64,000 nucleotides of DNA from an uncultured Actinomycetes bacterium (GTDB taxonomy: Bacteria; Actinomycetota; Humimicrobiia; Humimicrobiales; Humimicrobiaceae). A model generated the notes under the pieces. It was not told the DNA's origin, ran no database searches, and worked only from the letters and a program-made list of their open reading frames with translations. Where the stretch lies: NCBI GenBank assembly GCA_963847665.1, contig CAWKAO010000001.1, forward strand, positions 12,614-76,613. The letters run 5' to 3'. This document shows positions 1-40,330 of this stretch, piece after piece; the first letter of the stretch is position 1; every line of letters starts with the position of its first letter. Made by a program: the position numbers and the translations under genes.

Positions 1-823
1 ATGAGGAATTATCCACCCTTAAAAGATCCTATAAGCTTTTCGGCATCTCAGCGGTTCTAAACTGGGTAATCGGGCCTGCACTTATGTTTGGGCTTGCCTG
101 GCTCATGCTTTATGATCTTCCACAATACAGGGAAAGGGTAATAATCGTTGGCCTTGCAAGATGTATTGCTATGGTCCTAATATGGAACATGCTTGCAGGA
201 GGATGCAGTGAAAGATGTGCCGCACTGGTGGCTATAAATTCAATATTCCAGATTTTTTTCTTTGCTCCTCTTGCGTATTTTTATCTCACATTTTTATCCT
301 CAAAGATCGCCGGTGTACAGCAGGAGGTTATAGCTATATCAATGTGGGATATTGCTAAAAGCGTCCTGATATTTCTCGGGATCCCGCTTAGTAGCTGGCC
401 TCATTACAAGGCTTATCCTTGTCAAGAAGAAAGGTAAGTCCTGGTACGATGGCAGATTTGCTCCAAAGCTTGGGCCCTTATGCATTAATAGGTTTGATTT
501 TTACAATAGTAGTCATGTTTTCAATGAAGGGGGAATACATACTAAAACAACCTATTGATGTAGTACGGATAGCAATGCCACTTCTGGCTCTACTTTCTTC
601 ATAATGTTCTTTGTATCCTTCTTTATTGCAAGGGCTTTTAAAATTTAAATATGACCAGACTGCGACCCTCTCATTTACTGCTGCAAGTAATAATTTTGAG
701 CTTGCAATAGCTGTTGCTGTCGGTGTTTTTGGGATTTCTTCAGGACAGGCTTTTGCTACAGTAATAGGCCCGCTTATAGAAGTGCCGGTCCTTATAGCCT
801 TGTCTATGTTTCGATATGGCTAA
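1..823 (+). pseudogene. acr3: ACR3-family arsenite efflux permease, 5'-truncated by the window edge and disrupted by at least four frameshifts plus an in-frame stop at 605-607
   Basis: Translations in three frames together reconstruct ACR3 motifs ([96 protein letters not shown]). No single frame is open. Confidence 0.7.
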
Positions 824-868
824 GAAAAAAACTATTTGTTAAAAAATCCAGCTAAAAGAAGGCTAAAA

Positions 869-1160
869 ATGGAAAGTGATAAGTTAAGAACAACAACCCA
901 GATAATCAAAGCACTTGCAGATGAGACCAGGATAAGGATTGTCTGTCTTCTTAAAAATAAAAAAGACACTTTGTGTCTGTGAAATAACAGAGATAATAGG
1001 ACTAGCCCAGCCTACGGTCTCAAGCCATTTAAGACTTCTTGAAAATGCAGGGCTCATAAGCTCTTTTAAGGACGGGCTGTGGGTAAATTATAATATCAGA
1101 CAGGGCCTGGATAAATTCAGCGGTAAAATTATTGATGATCCTTTTAAAAGAACTCAGTGA
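869..1160 (+). pseudogene. arsR: ArsR-family metalloregulator, frameshifted in a poly-A run near 950-960
   Basis: The ATG at 869 gives MESDKLRTTTQIIKALADETRIRIVCLLKNK, then a stop. The +1 frame continues LCVCEITEIIGLAQPTVSSHLRLLENAGLI, which is the ArsR metal-binding CVC and HTH. The ORF at 939 is the downstream part. Confidence 0.65.
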
Positions 1161-1217
1161 TGACCGGCAGATAAATTCAGACATGAACAGAATAAAAAAT
1201 ATAAACAGGGAAGAAAT

Positions 1218-1649
1218 ATGCAGGAAAAGAGATTAAAAATACTTGTCGTATGTACGGGAAACTCTGCAAGGAGCCAGATGGCTGAGGGTTTTTTAAAAAA
1301 CTATAAAAAAGAATGGGAGATCTCAGTGCAGGAACTTCACCCAAGGAAGTAAATCCTCTGGCAGTTGAAGTAATGAAAGAAAAGGGGATAGACATATCAG
1401 GCCAAAAGTCAAAAAACATCAGTCTTTTTAAAGGCAGTAGATTTGACTACGTCATTACTGTCTGTGATAATGCGAAAGAATCTTGCCCAACATTTCCAGG
1501 TGAAACTAAACATATCCACTGGAGCTTTTCAGACCCTGCAGCGGTTACAGGATCGAACAGCTGAAAAGTTGAATGCTTTCAGGACGATAAGAGATGAGAT
1601 AGAAAGTAAAATAATATGGTTTATTCAGCAGCAGATTGAAGATAAATAG
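1218..1649 (+). pseudogene. arsC: Arsenate reductase of the LMW-PTP/thioredoxin-coupled type, split across three frames
   Basis: The N-terminus MQEKRLKILVVCTGNSARSQMAEGF carries the CTGNSxRS P-loop and stops at about 1347. Frame 2 continues GTSPKEVNPLAVEVMKEKGIDIS...YVITVCDNAKESCP...HW. Frame 3 carries the C-terminal EKLNAFRTIRDEIESKI. Confidence 0.65.
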
Positions 1650-1726
1650 ATATAGGACCATAATACCTAAAAAATTATTAATAAAGTATTTCTTAATAGT
1701 GAATGATTTAAATAAAGGATAAAAAT

Positions 1727-2023
1727 ATGAACACCAAAGAAACAGAATTAAAACCAGACAAAGAGTATCTGGGCATTCCTAGAAAAGAGATACCGTGGTT
1801 TCCTTCAATAGATCATCAAAAATGTGATGAATGTAAAAAATGTACAGCATTCTGTAAATTGAAAACATATTCTTATGATGAGAAGAGAAATATTGTCGAA
1901 GTCACAAATCCATACAATTGCGTAGTCGGCTGCAATGGCTGTGAGGGCATCTGTCCAAATGGTGCTATAAATTTTCCCTCAACATCAGTAATCGATGAAG
2001 TGAGGAAAAAATATAATGTCTAG
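1727..2023 (+). CDS. Small 2x[4Fe-4S] ferredoxin-like protein
   Basis: Two Cys clusters: CDECKKCTAFC and CVVGCNGCEGICP. The ORF is intact. Confidence 0.6.
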   Translation: MNTKETELKPDKEYLGIPRKEIPWFPSIDHQKCDECKKCTAFCKLKTYSYDEKRNIVEVTNPYNCVVGCNGCEGICPNGAINFPSTSVIDEVRKKYNV

Positions 2024-2103
2024 CCTGAATGGTCTATCCTGAATGCTCTGGACTCAAATAGGTAACGCAGACTACAAATGATTTAATTATTGGGAAAAAG
2101 AAC

Positions 2104-2457
2104 TTAGCTGAATTTTCTTTTCAGTTTTTTAAGCTTCACATTAAGGTCTTCCTGTGGCCTTCTATTGTTGTAACCCTGGCCTTCAGGTCTTCTGGAAAAA
2201 TTCTGGTTGTCTTCTCTCTGTCGAGCTTCGTTAACAAAAAGTGTTCTTTCCTTATAGGAGCTCTGATTGAATTTATCAATCGCTTTCTGAGCTTCCTCTT
2301 CGGTTTCCATTTCAACAAAACCGAAACCCCTGGATTTTCCGTCTGCCCTGGTAATCACTTTTGCGTATACCACATTACCTTCGCTTGAAAATAATTCCTC
2401 AAGGTCCTTGTCTGTGGTGGCGTATTCCAGATTACCAACATATAGTCTTTTGTTCAC
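2104..2457 (-). CDS. RRM-domain RNA-binding protein (RbpA-like)
   Basis: RNP2 motif LYVGNL and RNP1 motif RGFGFVEM, with an Arg/Gln/Asn-rich C-terminal tail. Confidence 0.85.
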   Translation of the reverse strand: MNKRLYVGNLEYATTDKDLEELFSSEGNVVYAKVITRADGKSRGFGFVEMETEEEAQKAIDKFNQSSYKERTLFVNEARQREDNQNFSRRPEGQGYNNRRPQEDLNVKLKKLKRKFS

Positions 2458-2719
2458 CTATTGTCCTTTCGTCTTTTTGTATTTTTCGCATAAGAAAAGC
2501 AAGAATAAATCTTCAATATAAAAGGGGATGCATTAATTTGATGATTATACCCGCGGAATTTAATTTTCTTCTATTATATTCTCTAATATAGCCTTACTGA
2601 TCTTATCCCATCACTAATTTTTTGTGATTGTGGTTAGTTATTATATATTATATTTATAAATATGCAATTATTTAAAAAATATTGAAACTTATTGTCAAAA
2701 TTGTCTAATAAAGATAAAT

Positions 2720-3374
2720 TTATTCCTCATAGGGCCTTATGACAGAAAGATCTCCTGTTTTTGCAGCCATAATAACAGGACTCATATATTTTTCTACCAG
2801 GGAAGAATCCAGGGCTACTGGCATATTTTTTAATTTCATTTCAAGCTGGGGGTTTTTTGCGGAACTGATAATATTCTCGATGTGTTTATTTGAAAATCCT
2901 CTTATCTGTTCCAGCTTGTATGGCAAATCTAAGTCTTTTGAAAAATCGATCATTCATTGCCAAAGCAATATATCTGACAAGCTCAAAAGGTTTTTGGGAT
3001 GAGATTTTTAAATCATTGATATCGATATCTTCATCCAGGTAGTCTTTAAAAATATCTGCAAGTCTTATAAGTTTTTCCTTTATCGCACTTGAAAAAAACA
3101 AGGTATAATATGGATTTATAATGGCGCATGCTTTTGTGTCCACAGTCTGCAATACTCTGATACTGTTTTCCTTAAGAGAATCGTTTACTTTTTCTCTTAA
3201 GCTATTTGCCCATTTTTTTTGAGAGACAATAAGAAAGGTATCGGATCCAAACTCACCGGCATATTTCCCGGTGGCGTTGGTAGCGTTTTTTCCAAAAGTA
3301 TATCTGCTTCCCTTATATTCTTTCAGTAATCTTATAGCAGTTTTTGTATTTTTATTGACAGTGTTTTCTCTCAA
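2720..3374 (-). CDS. Hypothetical protein downstream of the HNH-DGQHR gene. It is either two overlapping ORFs (162 aa and 77 aa) or one gene of about 218 aa with a frameshift.
   Basis: ORFs 2886-3374 and 2720-2953 are on the same strand and overlap by 68 nt across an A5 run. I recognise no domain. The gene lies 106 nt downstream of the HNH-DGQHR gene on the same strand. Confidence 0.4.
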
Positions 3375-3480
3375 GTCGGTACACCTCGATGACCATAATC
3401 GATCTGTTTATCAGTTTTTTATGTCTTGAATATTTTTAAAATTTTTTCCAAACTGTAATGTTTCATGGCACTTTTCTGGT

Positions 3481-4989
3481 TTAATCAATAAAATTATTGC
3501 TTGATCCGAAAATAGTGTTAATGATCCAGTTTGCATTCAAACCCCGTCTTGCAAGGTATTTCCTTACAAGATTTTCGTTACCCATGCGGAGATTGTTGTA
3601 ATTTTCCTGGGAATCGTCTGCCCAGACCCTGTGTGAAAAGAGTTTTTTTATCCCATCCTCAATTAACTGCCATTGCTCATCGGTGATCTCCCGGAGCAGT
3701 ATTTCTTTCCGTTCATTTTCATCATAAAGTTCGAGGACATTTGCAACAATATCCTTAAGCACTGCTGTCCATGCCTTAAATGAACCACCCAGAAAAATTC
3801 GCTCTGCGGTTTTATGGTTCTCATCATCCAGTTGTATGCTCCATTTTCCATCCAATGTATAGGCAGTTATAAGATTTAGGGATCTTAAAAGGTTCTGCCT
3901 TTCTATTTCACGCAACCTGTCTGACTCCTCAATATCTATGGATAATGGTTTATCCGCAATAAAACGCTTCAGGATAGACTGCTTCAACCTTAGTACGGTC
4001 AAAGGTTTTTTGAACCCATCACCATATTCTTCCAGATATTTTCTTATCCTGTTGCCACTGTCTTCGAGGATACTGTCATAAATGTTACTCTGAAGCATAT
4101 GCACAGCTTCGGATTTTTTCTTGCCTTTTGATACAAGGAAGTTTATAAATCCATCTTCCGATTTATTTCCACTGCTTTCCATATATTCGTTCCATTCCTC
4201 TGAAAATATGCTTGCCCATTTATTTATAAGCACAGAGGCAAAGAACGGCATCTGTCTTAATTTGTCATGAGCAACAAGGTTTGTTTCCTTAAGTATCTTA
4301 ATAACCGGCTCTATATATATCTTGCATTCTATGGCATTTCTTTCTGCCCAGATCTGGGCAGCAGCTTTATGCTGCCCATCAAAAAGAAATATTTTTTTGC
4401 CCACCAGCCTGCAGATGGAGGGTGTCAGTTGTGTATTTACTATAAGATGCCTGTAAAGTTCCCAGAGTCTCTTTAATTCAAGTGGCCTGGGCTGTAACTC
4501 AAGATCATTATGTATATAGTGCCTGGGTATGACAGCATAGAAAAACTTAAAACCTGTTGAAGGGCAACTATAAAGTGGGAGAACAAGCTCTTCTAATGCT
4601 TCACGGAACATGATCTTAATAATATCTTTCTCTTCATCAAGTTCAAATTCAAGTTCCTCATTTTCTTCCGCATTATTATTTTTAAACCTCAGGATATCAT
4701 CAAGTCTTTTTATCCCTCCTGATTTAAAAAAAGTCTCCATTTCTTTTAAGGCGCAATACTCATTTATCGAGAAATAACCGATCTCCCTGTGGTGTTTTTT
4801 ACAGACCACGGCGATATTTGAAATATCAAGTTTTTCCTCAAAGAGATAGGGTTTAATATGATGAAACTCGATATCTTTCTTTTTTCTGATAAGATGACCA
4901 TCGATCATACATGAAATTTTGCCATCCTTTGTATTTTTTTCAACTACTGTTTTTTTGTCTCTGGTTGTAAGATCCGGATGGGCAAGCAT
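3481..4989 (-). CDS. HNH endonuclease fused to a DGQHR (DndB-like/ParB-like) domain; candidate defence or nuclease protein
   Basis: N-terminal HNH signature C-x2-D-x(14)-HH-x(13)-N-x(7)-C-x2-HH (CMIDGH...FHHIKPY...NIAVVCKKHH; about 4780-4915). DGQHR-family motif FLFDGQHKAAAQIW at residues 201-214 (about 4348-4389). Intact 502-aa ORF flanked by AT-rich spacers. Confidence 0.6.
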   Translation of the reverse strand: MLAHPDLTTRDKKTVVEKNTKDGKISCMIDGHLIRKKKDIEFHHIKPYLFEEKLDISNIAVVCKKHHREIGYFSINEYCALKEMETFFKSGGIKRLDDILRFKNNNAEENEELEFELDEEKDIIKIMFREALEELVLPLYSCPSTGFKFFYAVIPRHYIHNDLELQPRPLELKRLWELYRHLIVNTQLTPSICRLVGKKIFLFDGQHKAAAQIWAERNAIECKIYIEPVIKILKETNLVAHDKLRQMPFFASVLINKWASIFSEEWNEYMESSGNKSEDGFINFLVSKGKKKSEAVHMLQSNIYDSILEDSGNRIRKYLEEYGDGFKKPLTVLRLKQSILKRFIADKPLSIDIEESDRLREIERQNLLRSLNLITAYTLDGKWSIQLDDENHKTAERIFLGGSFKAWTAVLKDIVANVLELYDENERKEILLREITDEQWQLIEDGIKKLFSHRVWADDSQENYNNLRMGNENLVRKYLARRGLNANWIINTIFGSSNNFID

Positions 4990-5133
4990 AAAACCTCCTG
5001 TATTTTAATAAAGACAATATTTTTTATAATATTTTAAAAATAATAAAAAAAATAAATCCATTGATAATAATAAAGCATATGATCAGATTTTATTATACAA
5101 AACATTTAATCCTAAACCCAATATAACGTTTTG

Positions 5134-6252
5134 TCAGTTATAGCCAAACACAACTGGAATCTTCTCTATCCTTTCGAATCCCCACTGTTCCGCAGGTTCC
5201 ACGGAGCTCCCTTCCTGGTGCTCATTAAAAGTTGCGATCGTAACCTGGTTTATTGTGGGGTCAATATTTACTGGATCCAGGAATTCCCTTATTATTTCAA
5301 GCTGGTATTTAAAATCTTCAGTAGAACCTGAAAGCGGAGTGATGCAGTACCGTTCTGAAGAGAGGCAGGTATCGTTATATGCAGGGATGCCTGCAGGAAT
5401 AAAATCTTTATTTGCAAGCATTGCTGCTGTCTTCCAGGCCATATATAAGAATTTTAACCTTTCTGCAAACCGGCCAGTATTATCCGGACGTCCGGCATAT
5501 GCAGAGTAACATGATATAGCATCAAATGCACTTATTGTAGAAAACCTGTAATTCCAGAAAACCACATCTCCTACAAGATAAATATCATATCCCTTCTTTT
5601 TAAGGTTATTACGTACTGTATCAATAGCTTCCTCATAGGCACCTGTAAAATCTCTTGCAATATATATCCATAGGACCGGCCTGCCACTTATTTTGAAATA
5701 GTTTTCACTTTCAAAATAAGTATCTGCCATATGTTCACAGTCATCAATAAATATCTGGGCTATTTCATTATTGTTAAAATCATATGGAGGTTCCTTATAA
5801 CCTATGTTTTCAAAACGAAGCAGGGGATCGTACATAAGGCATAATCTCGTATCTTTTAGATCATGATTCAGAATACCATCTTTGATAGTATCATCAAACT
5901 GGGGGATATACTCGATTTTTAATACATCTATACCATAAAAGTCTGTCCAATCGATGTGCTGGTCCATTACAGCTGGATCGGTGCTGTTGTAAAATCCAAG
6001 AAGCGGGATGTCTGAGTAACCTCTCTTCCAGTGTTGCTCATCATGCCATGTATAATAATCACAGTATACTATAGTATCCTTGATCCCGGGCTTATTTTTC
6101 CTGATAAGGTCCGATGCTCTGCTGATCGTTGTATAGGCAGGAAAAACCGCTTTTCCTATGAGAAACAACCTGCTTTCTGCAAGGTAAAGGATCCCTGTGA
6201 TGAATATTAATCCTGCCAGGACCGGGATGATTATTTTTAGAAGAATCCTCAT
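5134..6252 (-). CDS. Membrane-anchored glycoside hydrolase family 99-like (WbsX-like) protein
   Basis: N-terminal TM helix. YYTWHD and TFNEHQEGSSVEP resemble the GH99 motifs HYYTW and NEWHEGTQIE. Confidence 0.45.
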   Translation of the reverse strand: MRILLKIIIPVLAGLIFITGILYLAESRLFLIGKAVFPAYTTISRASDLIRKNKPGIKDTIVYCDYYTWHDEQHWKRGYSDIPLLGFYNSTDPAVMDQHIDWTDFYGIDVLKIEYIPQFDDTIKDGILNHDLKDTRLCLMYDPLLRFENIGYKEPPYDFNNNEIAQIFIDDCEHMADTYFESENYFKISGRPVLWIYIARDFTGAYEEAIDTVRNNLKKKGYDIYLVGDVVFWNYRFSTISAFDAISCYSAYAGRPDNTGRFAERLKFLYMAWKTAAMLANKDFIPAGIPAYNDTCLSSERYCITPLSGSTEDFKYQLEIIREFLDPVNIDPTINQVTIATFNEHQEGSSVEPAEQWGFERIEKIPVVFGYN

Positions 6253-6302
6253 AAGAGTTATAAGAAGTGCAGAAAATCCCTTTTTTTTAATATATGTTTT
6301 AA

Positions 6303-6719
6303 TTACCTGAGATTTCTTATATTTATTATTGTGATCTCGCCCGTGATCTCACGCTCTACACCCTGCTCGTCCTGATATTTAACACTTGTCGCAGTTTTAG
6401 AGATTATTTTTTTTGGGAAGATAAGGTTAAGTATTCCGTTATTTTTGACTATTATTAGATTCTCGTCTTTGTTTTTTAGGGCTGTTATGGTTATATAATC
6501 GCCAGTGAGATATTGTTCCCTGTCGTTTTCATCAATAAACTGAACGCTCTTTTCATCATTTGTGGTGACAGATTTTGCAAAACTGATCTGTTCTGCACTG
6601 CCTTTTTCAACTATTATCAGATACTTTTTATTATCGCTGCAGCCCGTCACTGATGCGGCTAGAAATATTAATATCACAAGGATGACTGTGATCAATGATT
6701 TTGGCCAGTGTCTATTCAT
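6303..6719 (-). CDS. Lipoprotein of unknown function
   Basis: Signal peptide with a lipobox-like AASVTGC. Confidence 0.5.
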   Translation of the reverse strand: MNRHWPKSLITVILVILIFLAASVTGCSDNKKYLIIVEKGSAEQISFAKSVTTNDEKSVQFIDENDREQYLTGDYITITALKNKDENLIIVKNNGILNLIFPKKIISKTATSVKYQDEQGVEREITGEITIINIRNLR

Positions 6720-6795
6720 TGTTGTTCCTTTTTAGTCTTTAAAAATATTTTATTTTTATTTCAATCTGCTCTTATTTCAAGCAATTGTCAATAAT

Positions 6796-7806
6796 TTAAA
6801 TGAAACCCCTTGACTTGTAAAATATATTTTTAAAAAAATATACTATACCTCCAAGTGATGCAGTAAAAAGGTGCTCAAATAATATCAGGAATGAAAAAAC
6901 AACTGCCTGTTCATTTGAGACCCCAAAATTAGTCAGCAAAAATACTATTGTGTTTTCCCTTACCCCCAGCCCACCGATAGATATTGGAATACCCGTCAGG
7001 ACAAAGATTATGGGTACCACAAAGACAAAAGTCATAAAGTTGAGGTTAAGCCCAAGTGAAAGGGAGACAAAATAAAAAAGGACCATAAACAGGCTCTGAG
7101 AAATAAAATTTATGGTCAGACCCAATGCAAGATAGGGCCATTTGTTCTTATAAGCATTTATCGCATCATTAAAAGAGATTATTTTTTTCTCGACTTTCTC
7201 AAGCCTTTTAAATCTTCTAAACAACCTGTCTATCCTGAAAAACTTTGGCCGGATTATTATCGAAAAAAGCAGAAAAGCTATAGCTAAAAAAATCGATATT
7301 AATACGATAGACTGCCTGAGAATACTATAGAGTGAAAAAGCTGTTATTATGAAATAAACAGTAATGCATATCAGGCCAAAAAATCTTTCTATTATTACTG
7401 TCGACAGGCTTTTACTCAAAGGGACATCTTTATTCTTATGGACATCATAGATCCTGTAAAAATCACCGCCGATGTTTGAAGGAAGAAGATTATTATAAAA
7501 ATATCCGATAAATGTAGACTGGTATAAAAATCCTGTACTGATCCTTATACCCTGTGCCCTCAGGAGTATGTTCCATCTTAGTGAGTCCGTGAATATATTA
7601 AATAAATGGGTAAATATTGCAAAGAGAATAAATAAAAGATTTATTTCTAAAAGAGCGCTGAATATATCCTGGAAATTTCTATAATTCTTAAGGACTATTA
7701 AAAGTAACAGTAAGATACTTATTAGTATCCTGACAAAGGTAAAGACCCTGTCCTTTTTTGAAGGCTCTAAAACTTCTTTTGATATCGTTTCGCTCATAAG
7801 GATCAA
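6796..7806 (-). CDS. Flippase-like (lysylphosphatidylglycerol synthase TM-region, UPF0104) integral membrane protein
   Basis: Multi-TM protein with the typical architecture of this family. Its stop overlaps the upstream TPM gene by 4 nt (ATGA). Confidence 0.4.
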   Translation of the reverse strand: MILMSETISKEVLEPSKKDRVFTFVRILISILLLLLIVLKNYRNFQDIFSALLEINLLFILFAIFTHLFNIFTDSLRWNILLRAQGIRISTGFLYQSTFIGYFYNNLLPSNIGGDFYRIYDVHKNKDVPLSKSLSTVIIERFFGLICITVYFIITAFSLYSILRQSIVLISIFLAIAFLLFSIIIRPKFFRIDRLFRRFKRLEKVEKKIISFNDAINAYKNKWPYLALGLTINFISQSLFMVLFYFVSLSLGLNLNFMTFVFVVPIIFVLTGIPISIGGLGVRENTIVFLLTNFGVSNEQAVVFSFLILFEHLFTASLGGIVYFFKNIFYKSRGFI

Positions 7807-8648
7807 GACGATAATTTTAAAGAAATATTTTTTATTATCTGGATTATGCCCTGTCCGAATCTGTTAGCCTTGAAGTTTGGCAATGCATATTGGCTGTAGA
7901 TCGTATTTATGAATTCATGATCTATCACTTCCTCAAGACCCAGGCCCACTTCTAACCTGTACATGTTGGTTTCTGTATCTATCAGAAACATTATTCCGTT
8001 GTTTTTATCTTCTTTGCCGACTCCCCATTCATTAAAAAGGTTATTTGTATAGCTCTCTATAGTCTCACCCTCGAGTGAGTAGACCGTCACTACTGTTATT
8101 TCAACCGAGGTATTCCTTTCGAGCCTGTCTATAAGCGCAGTTATGATCTTGATATCCTGTGATTTTAATATTCTGGAAAAATCATTTACAGGTTTAGTCT
8201 GTGTATCTAGTTCAACAGTCACTATTTCGTCTTCATCGTCAAGTCTTATAACTATTGTGTTTTTGTATCTTTTGCTCCATTCAAATGCTGTTGCTTCAAA
8301 ACATACTCTAACAGGCATTTTTTCAGCTTGATCTTTAAAAAGTGGTTCGTAACTGGTAATTTTTACAAACGGATAAGCATCGACGACAAAAAGTTCCATT
8401 TCCTTAAAAGGGCCGCCGATATTTCTTACAATAAAGCTGCTCTTCTTGATCTGGCCTTTTTTAAGATCATTGAATTCTAAGTTATCAATATCTGCAACAG
8501 GATGAGGTATTGAGTTACTTATTTCAGATGCGTTCCTGTATTCCGGGTCATTTTCATTTATATATTTTTGTTTTTCTGCCATAGATAAAAAACCATGTAA
8601 GAAATTCGTATTAGACAGTATTATTGCAAAATATATATATTGAATCAA
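7803..8648 (-). CDS. TPM-domain (TLP18.3/Psb32/MOLO-1) protein with an extra N-terminal domain
   Basis: The C-terminal EWGVGKEDKNNGIMFLIDTETNMYRLEVGLGLEEVID matches the TPM consensus WGIGKK..NGVLLL...R.EVGYGLEG. The true start may be the internal ATG of MAEKQKY at about 8582. Confidence 0.5.
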   Translation of the reverse strand: MIQYIYFAIILSNTNFLHGFLSMAEKQKYINENDPEYRNASEISNSIPHPVADIDNLEFNDLKKGQIKKSSFIVRNIGGPFKEMELFVVDAYPFVKITSYEPLFKDQAEKMPVRVCFEATAFEWSKRYKNTIVIRLDDEDEIVTVELDTQTKPVNDFSRILKSQDIKIITALIDRLERNTSVEITVVTVYSLEGETIESYTNNLFNEWGVGKEDKNNGIMFLIDTETNMYRLEVGLGLEEVIDHEFINTIYSQYALPNFKANRFGQGIIQIIKNISLKLSS

Positions 8649-8724
8649 TTAAAATACTTTTTTTAGTCAGGGATTTATTCTATAATCACAGGAACTGAAA
8701 TCAAATTTTTGTACCAGATTCCCT

Positions 8725-9489
8725 ATGTCCATGGAAAAAACAATTTATTACATGCTGCTGATCTTTATATTTGCCGTGTCAATACTTGTCTTTCTTGCCC
8801 TTATCTTTATCTCTGCTCCCTACGGAAGATTTACAAGAAAGGGATGGGGGCTGAGGATAAATCCAATGTTAGCCTGGTTTATAATGGAGTTACCGGCTGT
8901 TATTGTAATATTTTTATGTTATGTCATTGGAAACAGGCAGGGTAACTTTGTTGCAAATATATTTCTAATTATCTGGATGCTTCATTATGTCCAGAGGACT
9001 TTTATTTATCCTTTTTTCCAGCGGAATACAAAAAATACTTTTCCGGTGCTATTGATTGTTTTTTCGATCCTGTTTAATGGCCTGAACGGATACTTAAACG
9101 GAAGGTATCTTTTTTATTTTTCAGCTCCATATAGTTTAAGCTGGCTGCATGATCCAAGATTTATTATTGGCACTGTGATGTTTTTAACAGGTTATATAAT
9201 CAATCTGAATTCTGATCACATATTAAGGAATTTAAGAGACCCGGGCGAGGAAGACTATAAAATACCTTTTGGAGGGTTTTTCAGGTATATCTCGAGTCCT
9301 AATTATTTTGGTGAGATGATAGAATGGATAGGTTGGGCTATACTTACCTGGAGTCTTGCAGGAGCTGCATTTGCAGTTTTTACGATAGCAAATCTTGCGC
9401 CAAGAGCAATTTCAAACCATAAATGGTATTTAAAAAACTTTCCCGAATATCCAAAAAAAAGGAAATCTATAATCCCTTTTATTTTTTAA
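8725..9489 (+). CDS. Steroid 5-alpha reductase family (3-oxo-5-alpha-steroid 4-dehydrogenase-like) membrane protein
   Basis: C-terminal FRYISSPNYFGEMIEWIGWAI...NHKWYLKNFPEYPKK is the family signature. Confidence 0.65.
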   Translation: MSMEKTIYYMLLIFIFAVSILVFLALIFISAPYGRFTRKGWGLRINPMLAWFIMELPAVIVIFLCYVIGNRQGNFVANIFLIIWMLHYVQRTFIYPFFQRNTKNTFPVLLIVFSILFNGLNGYLNGRYLFYFSAPYSLSWLHDPRFIIGTVMFLTGYIINLNSDHILRNLRDPGEEDYKIPFGGFFRYISSPNYFGEMIEWIGWAILTWSLAGAAFAVFTIANLAPRAISNHKWYLKNFPEYPKKRKSIIPFIF

Positions 9490-40085: not shown

Positions 40086-40162
40086 GGGCATATAGCTCAG
40101 TTGGTTAGAGCGCGTCCCTGATAAGGACGAGGTCTCTGGTTCGAATCCAGATATGCCCACCA
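40086..40162 (+). tRNA. tRNA-Ile (anticodon GAT)
   Basis: Cloverleaf GGGCATA/TATGCCC acceptor, D-loop AGTTGGTTAGAGC, anticodon loop CTGATAA, T-loop GGTTCGAATCC, encoded CCA. Confidence 0.9.
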
Positions 40163-40172
40163 GTAGACACGT

Positions 40173-40248
40173 GGGGGTGTAGCTCAGCTGGGAGAGCGCC
40201 TGCCTTGCAAGCAGGAGGCCAGCGGTTCGATCCCGCTCATCTCCACCA
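40173..40248 (+). tRNA. tRNA-Ala (anticodon TGC)
   Basis: G3:U70 identity pair, anticodon loop CTTGCAA, T-loop GGTTCGATCC, encoded CCA. Confidence 0.9.
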
Positions 40249-40255
40249 CTTTTTT

Positions 40256-40330
40256 GGGGATGTAGTTCAGTGGGAGAACGCTTGTCTGGCAGACAAGAGG
40301 GCGGCGGTTCAAATCCGCTCATCTCCACCA
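40256..40330 (+). tRNA. tRNA-Ala (anticodon GGC)
   Basis: GGGGATG acceptor with G3:U70, anticodon loop CTGGCAG, T-loop GGTTCAAATCC, encoded CCA. Confidence 0.85.

Follow-up and report, generated by a model that had tools for sequence, protein, structure and literature searches.

A family of HNH proteins with a ParB/Srx-like domain, a candidate nucleotide-gated nuclease found in many phyla

Gene and domain architecture at the locus

We analyzed a 64,000-nucleotide stretch of contig CAWKAO010000001.1 from an uncultured Humimicrobiaceae bacterium (the window), and within it a gene for a 502-amino-acid protein that lies on the minus strand at 3481..4989, stop codon included, in the list of open reading frames (ORFs). 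The ORF is a real gene; read from the sequence, a Shine-Dalgarno-like AGGAGG stands at 4994..4999 on the same strand, 5 nt before the ATG at 4989. The original prediction for this locus, made from the letters alone, had proposed an HNH nuclease fused to a DndB-like (DGQHR) domain that, together with a downstream partner gene, formed a small inserted defense island. Its account of the layout was accurate: a co-oriented ORF follows after a 106-nt spacer (3375-3480), and an RRM gene (2104..2457) and a GH99/WbsX-like gene (5134..6252) flank the region. It was also right that the 502-residue ORF has a complete N-terminal HNH motif, as the ORF list and an above-cut-off Pfam match confirm, and that this HNH is fused to a ParB-like domain with a DGQH(K) motif, for which structure prediction and Foldseek give a ParB/Srx fold. 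The overall architecture, an HNH domain followed by a ParB/sulfiredoxin (Srx)-like domain and a helical domain of about 250 residues, is near certain.

The HNH nuclease core occupies residues 27-69 (4783..4911, minus strand) and is recognized by Pfam HNH (PF01844) at 23.1 bits against a cut-off of 21.4 (E = 8.3e-5). Its motif is complete: C27-x2-D30, H43-H44, N58 and C63-x2-H66-H67. The zinc-ligand set of the window protein is C27, C63 and H66, and the second ligand, Asp30, is Cys in distant members. Though marginal for this protein, the HNH score is secure at the family level, since PF01844 matches 42 of 45 relatives (best E = 3.9e-8) and 74 of 88 more distant ones (best E = 1.3e-11). The most distant members, at 18-30% identity, have a canonical HNH (C-x2-C ... 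D-H ... N ... H-x2-C-N), and the catalytic pattern H/D-H...N...H/N is conserved in the family, being represented in the window protein by H43-H44, N58 and H67. The HNH of Cas9, Cap5 and McrA were its structural matches, and a PDB sequence search with the full family profile returned weak matches to the IscB HNH only. On sequence grounds, the N-terminal domain is a predicted HNH (beta-beta-alpha-metal) DNA endonuclease.

An AlphaFold2 model of the whole protein was built from 40 homologues (mean pLDDT, 84.2), and its central part, residues ~140-250 (4240..4572, minus strand), was compared with known structures by Foldseek. All top matches were ParB, PadC, Noc, Srx or KorB, most of them at probability 1.0, and nucleotide-bound ParB was among the leading ones. 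As modeled, these residues carry a ParB/sulfiredoxin fold. Two motifs stand where ParB has its nucleotide-binding boxes. The Box I-like Q166-P-R168 (4486..4494, minus strand) is at the place of the ParB Box I QPR, and the Box II-like D204-G-Q-H-K208 (4366..4380, minus strand), within the stretch FLFDGQHKAAAQIW (residues 201-214; codons GAT GGG CAG CAT AAA at 4380-4366), is the equivalent of the ParB P-motif, with GxxK for GxxR. In the model, the elements around DGQHK run strand, strand, DGQHK, helix, strand, which is the order of ParB Box II. Both motifs are invariant among members of 29-70% identity; P167 and R168 are kept in at least 96% of the 88 distant members, and H207 is invariant even among members at 18-30% identity. 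Box III is loosely recognizable as E/D-T-N in the close clade and is lost from distant clades.

Sequence models do not see this resemblance. Neither Pfam ParBc nor Pfam DUF262 matched any of the 133 members scanned (45 + 88). DUF6551 gave weak matches to 7 of the 45 (best E = 0.021) and to 3 of the 88 (best E = 5.3e-5), and a PDB sequence search with the non-HNH profile gave no match. An hhalign comparison of the family profile with an approximate Bacillus subtilis ParB sequence paired, as expected, QPR with QPR and DGQHK with GERRF; its E value of 0.17 is not significant, so that the pairing is a lead only. The remainder of the protein, residues 251-502 (3484..4239, minus strand), is all helical. 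Its residues E278 and R360 are invariant through the distant members (18-30% identity), and no solved structural relative of this region was detected.

Size, distribution and setting of the family

A first homologue search gave at least 481 matches, and the 120 of these that were listed were mostly full length. Altogether the 502-residue protein has hundreds of full-length relatives of 490-550 amino acids, whose annotation goes no further than "HNH endonuclease" or "hypothetical." When a profile of the non-HNH part (residues 105-502) was searched against 1.84 billion representatives, 416 proteins matched at E ≤ 1e-3, 278 at 1e-10 and 108 at 1e-30; the 416 are representatives of clusters at 50% identity. 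In nearly all full-length relatives the match starts at residue ~105-160, leaving an N-terminal domain of ~110 amino acids, which is thus a constant feature of the family. In a pattern scan of 185,579 GTDB species genomes, 372 relatives turned up, spread over many phyla. Bacterial hosts include Actinomycetota, Chloroflexota, Acidobacteriota, Bacillota, Planctomycetota, Bacteroidota, Pseudomonadota, Spirochaetota and others; among archaeal hosts are Methanothrix, Methanosarcinales, Thermoplasmatota and Methermicoccus. That the protein belongs to no named system, as first supposed, was upheld: PADLOC, NCBIfam and Pfam offered no system or family beyond HNH, and a literature search found no paper naming an HNH-ParB, HNH-DndB or HNH-DUF262 system.

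One metagenome-assembled genome (MAG), FK_Sedi_B_Bin.138 (JAMDDL01), has two family copies on different contigs (L021 and L028), each preceded by the same 768-amino-acid gene on the opposite strand. Either the gene is truly duplicated there or the bin is mixed.

What surrounds the gene differs between the lineage of the window and other hosts. We counted as window relatives the MAGs labeled Actinomycetota, Humimicrobiaceae, Humimicrobiales or Candidatus Humimicrobium. Outside this lineage, neighbors include HsdM, HsdR, N6_N4 and DUF1156 methyltransferases, and SNF2 and SF1 helicases. We scanned 145 proteins encoded within two genes of the family gene at 45 non-lineage loci with Pfam and PADLOC. 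The commonest Pfam families were ResIII, N6_Mtase, N6_N4_Mtase, UPF0020, SWI2_SNF2 and Eco57I, and the models most often matched in PADLOC were mad2, type I methyltransferase (MTase_I), type I restriction endonuclease (REase_I) and type IIG. A restriction-modification (RM)-like or defense gene lay within two genes at 15 of the 45 loci, a count for which no genomic background was compared. Neighbor clustering found no single family widely common to the loci. Hence the proposed link of the nuclease to defense stands in part, through these RM and defense neighbors; in the window lineage none was seen.

The clearest defense-island context among the loci is that of Methermicoccus shengliensis (L003/L004, 8001-9470), where the family gene directly follows an MNT/HepT pair, overlapping the stop of the HepT toxin gene by 4 nt, a few kilobases from Cmr5, a RAMP protein and Cas3. 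At two Chloroflexota loci (L066 and L067) the family gene is found within a cluster for a xanthine-dehydrogenase-type molybdoenzyme, where it either separates the FAD-binding subunit from the 2Fe-2S and molybdenum cofactor (MoCo) subunits or directly precedes the three of them. A metabolic setting of this kind matches neither the defense picture nor that of Humimicrobiia.

A candidate nucleotide-gated HNH nuclease

By analogy with GmrSD, BrxU and SspE, we favor the reading that the 502-residue protein is a single-protein, nucleoside triphosphate (NTP)-gated HNH endonuclease, a permuted analogue of those enzymes, and give this a probability of roughly 0.55. A defense function of the family is moderately likely. 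In GmrSD, BrxU and SspE, a ParB-like DUF262 NTPase senses the state of DNA and licenses an HNH-type nuclease (PMC4619093, PMC12065111, PMC13251355); ParB clamps provide a second analogy (PMC12704722). In the window family, the QPR/DGQHK pocket of the ParB-like domain would bind, and perhaps hydrolyze, an NTP. The nucleotide would switch the oligomeric or DNA-bound state, through self-association or DNA clamping, and so position the N-terminal HNH to cut, with the helical C-terminal region supplying specificity by recognizing a target or signal. Such an enzyme would most likely attack modified or non-self DNA in the manner of type IV restriction, or stay inactive until triggered. Most copies, including that of the window, have no adjacent methyltransferase, and an unregulated sequence-specific HNH nuclease lacking a cognate methyltransferase would be lethal; a modification- or trigger-dependent mode is therefore the most economical suggestion.

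Like the GmrSD/BrxU/SspE proteins (COG1479; DUF262 plus DUF1524), members of the window family combine a ParB/Srx-fold domain, a His-Me-finger nuclease and an intervening or flanking helical domain in one polypeptide. The known proteins have a DGQxR-type phosphate-binding motif, are encoded by stand-alone genes in defense islands and beside type I RM and BREX loci, and cleave under NTP gating (PMC4619093, PMC12065111, PMC13251355, PMC3632139). The window family differs in having the reverse order, with the nuclease N-terminal; a classical PF01844 HNH, nearest to those of Cas9, IscB, McrA and Cap5, in place of a DUF1524 nuclease; and DGQHK in place of DGQQR. The models for DUF262 and DUF1524 (Pfam) and for GmrSD, BrxU and SspE (PADLOC) do not match it. 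A defense-island or RM setting was seen at about one-third of the non-Humimicrobiia loci, again with no background compared, and in Methermicoccus, whereas it is absent in the window lineage.

Other known proteins are less close in architecture. Proteins of the ParB-CTPase fold (ParB, Noc, KorB and PadC) are the best structural matches, and a Box I-like QPR followed by a Box II-like GxxK is in keeping with them; however, the window protein has no helix-turn-helix or parS-binding domain, no ParA-interaction motif and no C-terminal dimerization domain, its family is not detected by Pfam ParBc, and the Box II Arg is Lys. Cap5 (SAVED-HNH), McrA and TagI are likewise HNH effectors, but with SAVED or SRA/N-terminal readers, to which the ParB/Srx-like sensor of the window family is unrelated. 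Makarova et al. described ParB-like COG1479 domains fused to various nucleases (PMC3632139), and a survey of December 2025 lists bacterial ParB-CTPase-HNH (PF01844) fusions as novel and uncharacterized (PMC12704722). The combination of a ParB/Srx switch and an HNH-type cutter in one protein is already known from the GmrSD family. What is new is the reversed order, the PF01844 HNH, the Lys P-motif, the invisibility to DUF262, DndB and ParBc models, and a C-terminal domain with no known relative.

If the protein is indeed an NTP-gated HNH nuclease, it would represent the GmrSD/BrxU/SspE design in permuted form, apparently assembled independently; ParB-type switches and HNH cutters would then have been paired more than once, and the recently noted ParB-CTPase-HNH fusions would gain a concrete family. 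Its compact size, extreme conservation and new C-terminal domain make the family suited to resolving nucleotide specificity and trigger. We also put forward, more tentatively, a broader proposal: that the ~400 clusters at 50% identity, from bacteria and archaea, make up a widespread and undescribed kind of single-protein nuclease that serves immunity or guards the genome, its N-terminal Cas9/IscB-like HNH being gated by a ParB-CTPase-type nucleotide switch whose P-motif has Lys and by a helical sensor of ~250 residues with a new structure, and that in Humimicrobiia it has been domesticated as a stably inherited chromosomal gene, possibly with a non-immune role there in DNA maintenance.

Several observations weigh against a gated defense nuclease. 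In the window lineage the context is a housekeeping one, of GH99-like, TPM, steroid dehydrogenase-like, thymidylate synthase and RRM genes, and inheritance there looks vertical, which is unusual for a defense gene. Conservation is also unusually high for an immune gene, with a mean column identity of 42% across phyla. The enrichment of defense neighbors outside the lineage is a judgment rather than a statistic, there being no random-gene background behind the 15 of 45 loci. The ParB P-motif is GxxR (PMC12704722), whereas its Arg is replaced in this family: position 208 is Lys in 81 of the 88 distant members and Arg in 4, and Lys is invariant in closer ones. SspE and BrxU were missing among the structural matches listed. 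Finally, His44 is replaced (by N, F, Y or L) in 13 of 40 close homologues, and 6 of these 13 also have Lys at metal-binding position 67, so that the predicted nuclease activity may not be family-wide. The window protein, unlike this His44-less sub-clade, retains the full HNH catalytic set.

The sub-clade includes P0093, P0096, P0099, P0108, P0111, P0113 and others, and the six members with Lys67 have also regained the C-x2-C zinc pair. Its ParB-like and helical domains are still highly conserved even though the catalytic His44 is gone; the non-nuclease part may thus have a function of its own.

Genomic context and alternative explanations

Could the gene instead serve the cell? The main rival to the gated defense nuclease is a housekeeping role in Humimicrobiia, with the protein acting as a chromosome-maintenance or DNA-repair nuclease, or as a nucleotide-dependent DNA-processing factor, of Humimicrobiia-like Actinomycetota, and the copies in other phyla being transfers rather than immunity genes. 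A recurring neighborhood, in three variants, was found in ~25 related genomes. Seven loci have the upstream block of the window (GH99-like, TPM and steroid-dehydrogenase-like/DUF1295 genes), and the two other variants differ in their upstream genes; downstream, thymidylate synthase occurs at eight loci and RRM at four besides the window. The focal protein is 58-67% identical between lineage genomes and flanking orthologues are 48-74% identical. The divergence of the gene is in step with that of its flanks, which argues for vertical descent in this lineage, and no defense genes were seen in the lineage neighborhoods. The very strong conservation of the central domain, and an HNH gene left intact while its neighbors decayed, also favor a housekeeping role. 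Against it stand the patchy distribution (372 relatives in 185,579 species genomes), the location beside RM systems, MADS, toxin-antitoxin modules and Cas genes in other phyla and archaea, and the fact that no link to a replication or repair operon was seen. On balance, we consider a housekeeping role unlikely as an account of the family.

These data do bear on how the gene came to be where it is. The original prediction had seen a small inserted defense island bracketed by AT-rich spacers. Those spacers (GC content, ~0.29-0.30, in a genome of ~35% GC) are ordinary intergenic DNA, the composition of the 502-residue gene shows no anomaly, and a search of its boundaries found no flanking repeats that would mark an insertion, only AT-rich chance repeats. 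Because its GC content is unremarkable, no repeats bound it and it bears the signature of vertical descent, the gene is not a recent insertion here. We conclude that in the Humimicrobiia-like lineage it is an old, vertically kept chromosomal resident. Such stable inheritance in one actinobacterial class offers an unusual natural case in which to ask if nucleases of this kind ever acquire housekeeping roles.

At the eight loci with thymidylate synthase (L001, L006, L009, L015, L018, L026, L027 and L030), that gene (PF00303) is found one or two genes further downstream, the genes between the two being variable. Pyrimidine hydroxymethylases fall under PF00303 as well, and there may be a functional link to DNA base metabolism. 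We read the linkage as lineage synteny, since the intervening genes vary and thymidylate synthase is absent at this position in the window.

Alternatively, the protein could be the restriction part of an RM system that cuts unmodified DNA, the host being protected by an unlinked or sometimes linked methyltransferase. Methyltransferases (type I HsdM, N6_N4, IIG/Eco57I-like and DUF1156) are indeed the commonest neighbors outside the lineage, at ~15 of the 45 loci. However, these methyltransferases are drawn from several families with no relation to each other and are usually accompanied by an HsdR and HsdS of their own, and so constitute complete systems by themselves. Moreover, two-thirds of the loci, all Humimicrobiia loci and the window itself have no adjacent methyltransferase. 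We regard this role as improbable, and more so than a housekeeping one.

A selfish homing-type HNH endonuclease or mobile-element gene would fit the patchy phyletic distribution, and homing endonucleases often have HNH domains. The gene has no intron or intein around it and no flanking repeats, no tRNA lies close to it, and there is no Rfam family in 1-9000. Searches by tblastn of 72,556 plasmids and of 50,697 phage genomes gave no match to the family, and only 3 relatives occur among the 2.9 million viral contigs of IMG/VR. Given also the stable synteny within the lineage, we think a mobile origin very improbable.

The proposed membership in the DGQHR/DndB family did not survive, and with it goes nearly all likelihood that the protein is a DndB-type regulator or accessory protein of a Dnd/Ssp phosphorothioation or 7-deazaguanine (Dpd) system. 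In favor of such a role, the DGQH motif is common to both, and TIGR03187 (DGQHR) gives a weak alignment to the window protein whose register is right, residues 198-252 falling on profile positions 97-144. That match scores 13 bits, however, against a cut-off of 58.85 (E = 0.063); TIGR03187 reaches E ≤ 1 in 4 of 45 members only (best, 0.022), and PF14072 (DndB) matched none of the 133 members scanned. Nor are the associated genes present. The prediction had called the gene an orphan without dndACDE, and this was borne out: no dndC/D/E, ssp or dpd genes were found in the window, at the 14 family loci with called genes and precomputed Pfam families, or by Pfam among the 145 neighbor proteins of the 45 non-lineage loci. 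At the remaining loci of the 95 in our set, neighbors were clustered by BLAST without annotation. Standing always beside dndCDE-like genes, as an ordinary DndB variant might, is thus not a habit of the family at the annotated loci.

Likeness to DndB/DGQHR proteins is confined to the ParB/Srx superfamily fold, the DGQH that follows a beta-strand and the upstream Q(x)R pair; Lys for Arg in the pentapeptide, the fused HNH and the lack of adjoining dndCDE at annotated loci set the window family apart. DndB-like proteins bind ATP/GTP (PMC12704722), and DndB has been described as a transcriptional regulator with a C-terminal HEPN-like or 8-helix domain (PMC3632139, PMC12065111). Such a C-terminal domain was not detected in the window protein, whose own C-terminal domain, like the HNH fusion, is unlike DndB. 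We conclude that the 502-residue protein represents a separate branch of the ParB/Srx superfamily, unannotated but with the DGQH signature in common, because it belongs to the superfamily by fold and yet fails the DndB/DGQHR, ParBc and DUF262 models.

The supposed partner, described as a gene of 160-220 amino acids with no recognizable domain, proved to be a pair of minus-strand ORFs that overlap in different frames, 2886..3374 (162 amino acids) and 2720..2953 (77 amino acids). The first matched the N terminus of iron-containing alcohol dehydrogenase (Fe-ADH) weakly (PF00465 positions 2-55, E = 2e-4), and the second gave a weak match to the glycerol dehydrogenase C terminus (positions 296-352 of 367). 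We joined the two frames at a T5 run (~2945-2950) and used the frameshift-corrected translation as a query. It found three proteins besides itself, two with Fe-ADH Pfam domains (PF25137, plus PF00465 in one); one of the three is named iron-containing alcohol dehydrogenase. Across the frameshift the alignment was unbroken, query residues 81-214 matching residues 153-279 of the Fe-ADH P0123 at 45% identity (E = 3e-38). Compared with the intact enzymes P0122 and P0123, the remnant lacks ~150 or more residues preceding that segment; it keeps the N-terminal ~80 and C-terminal ~135 residues, and the catalytic middle is deleted. Since that middle is gone and the frame is shifted, we identify 2720..3374 (minus strand), by these alignments, as an Fe-ADH pseudogene with an internal deletion and a frameshift, unrelated to the HNH gene and not part of any system with it.

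The pair does not recur either, an outcome that the original prediction had itself named as refuting it. In an all-ORF clustering of the 95 family loci the downstream ORF was a singleton, with no homologue at the other 94, and close relatives carry RRM, thymidylate synthase, NosD-like or Na/Pi-transporter genes downstream. A two-gene defense or nuclease module of the HNH-DGQHK protein and a downstream protein of 160-220 amino acids, suggested by co-orientation, the 106-nt spacer and a GAGGTG before the TTG start of the downstream ORF, can accordingly be dismissed with hardly a reservation: its second gene consists of frameshifted Fe-ADH pieces from which at least 150 internal residues have been deleted, and has no counterpart beside any other family locus. 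For annotation, the outcome is that a spurious two-gene system is struck off and a pseudogene is recognized. We also considered a hidden small conserved partner, but the downstream ORFs of ~200-230 amino acids in other phyla were mutually unrelated even at E = 0.01, and all-versus-all clustering of the neighbors of the family loci found no conserved partner.

Other features of the window

The Fe-ADH remnant is not the only disrupted gene in the first 3.4 kb of the window. On the plus strand, at 1-1650, an arsenic-resistance cluster is apparently broken: a transporter of the ACR3/SBF family is split over at least two ORFs, 84-437 (profile positions 45-144) and 419-604 (profile positions 153-190), ArsR is only 73 amino acids long, and the ArsC, of the low-molecular-weight-phosphatase type, spans only profile positions 36-104. 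The disruptions come either from decay of genes in this region or from indel errors made during assembly.

Some 35 kb from the HNH gene, tRNA genes for Ile-GAT, Ala-TGC and Ala-GGC stand in a row on the plus strand (40086-40330). Ile-GAT and Ala-TGC are the usual tRNAs of the rRNA spacer, and an rRNA operon may lie near 40086-40330.

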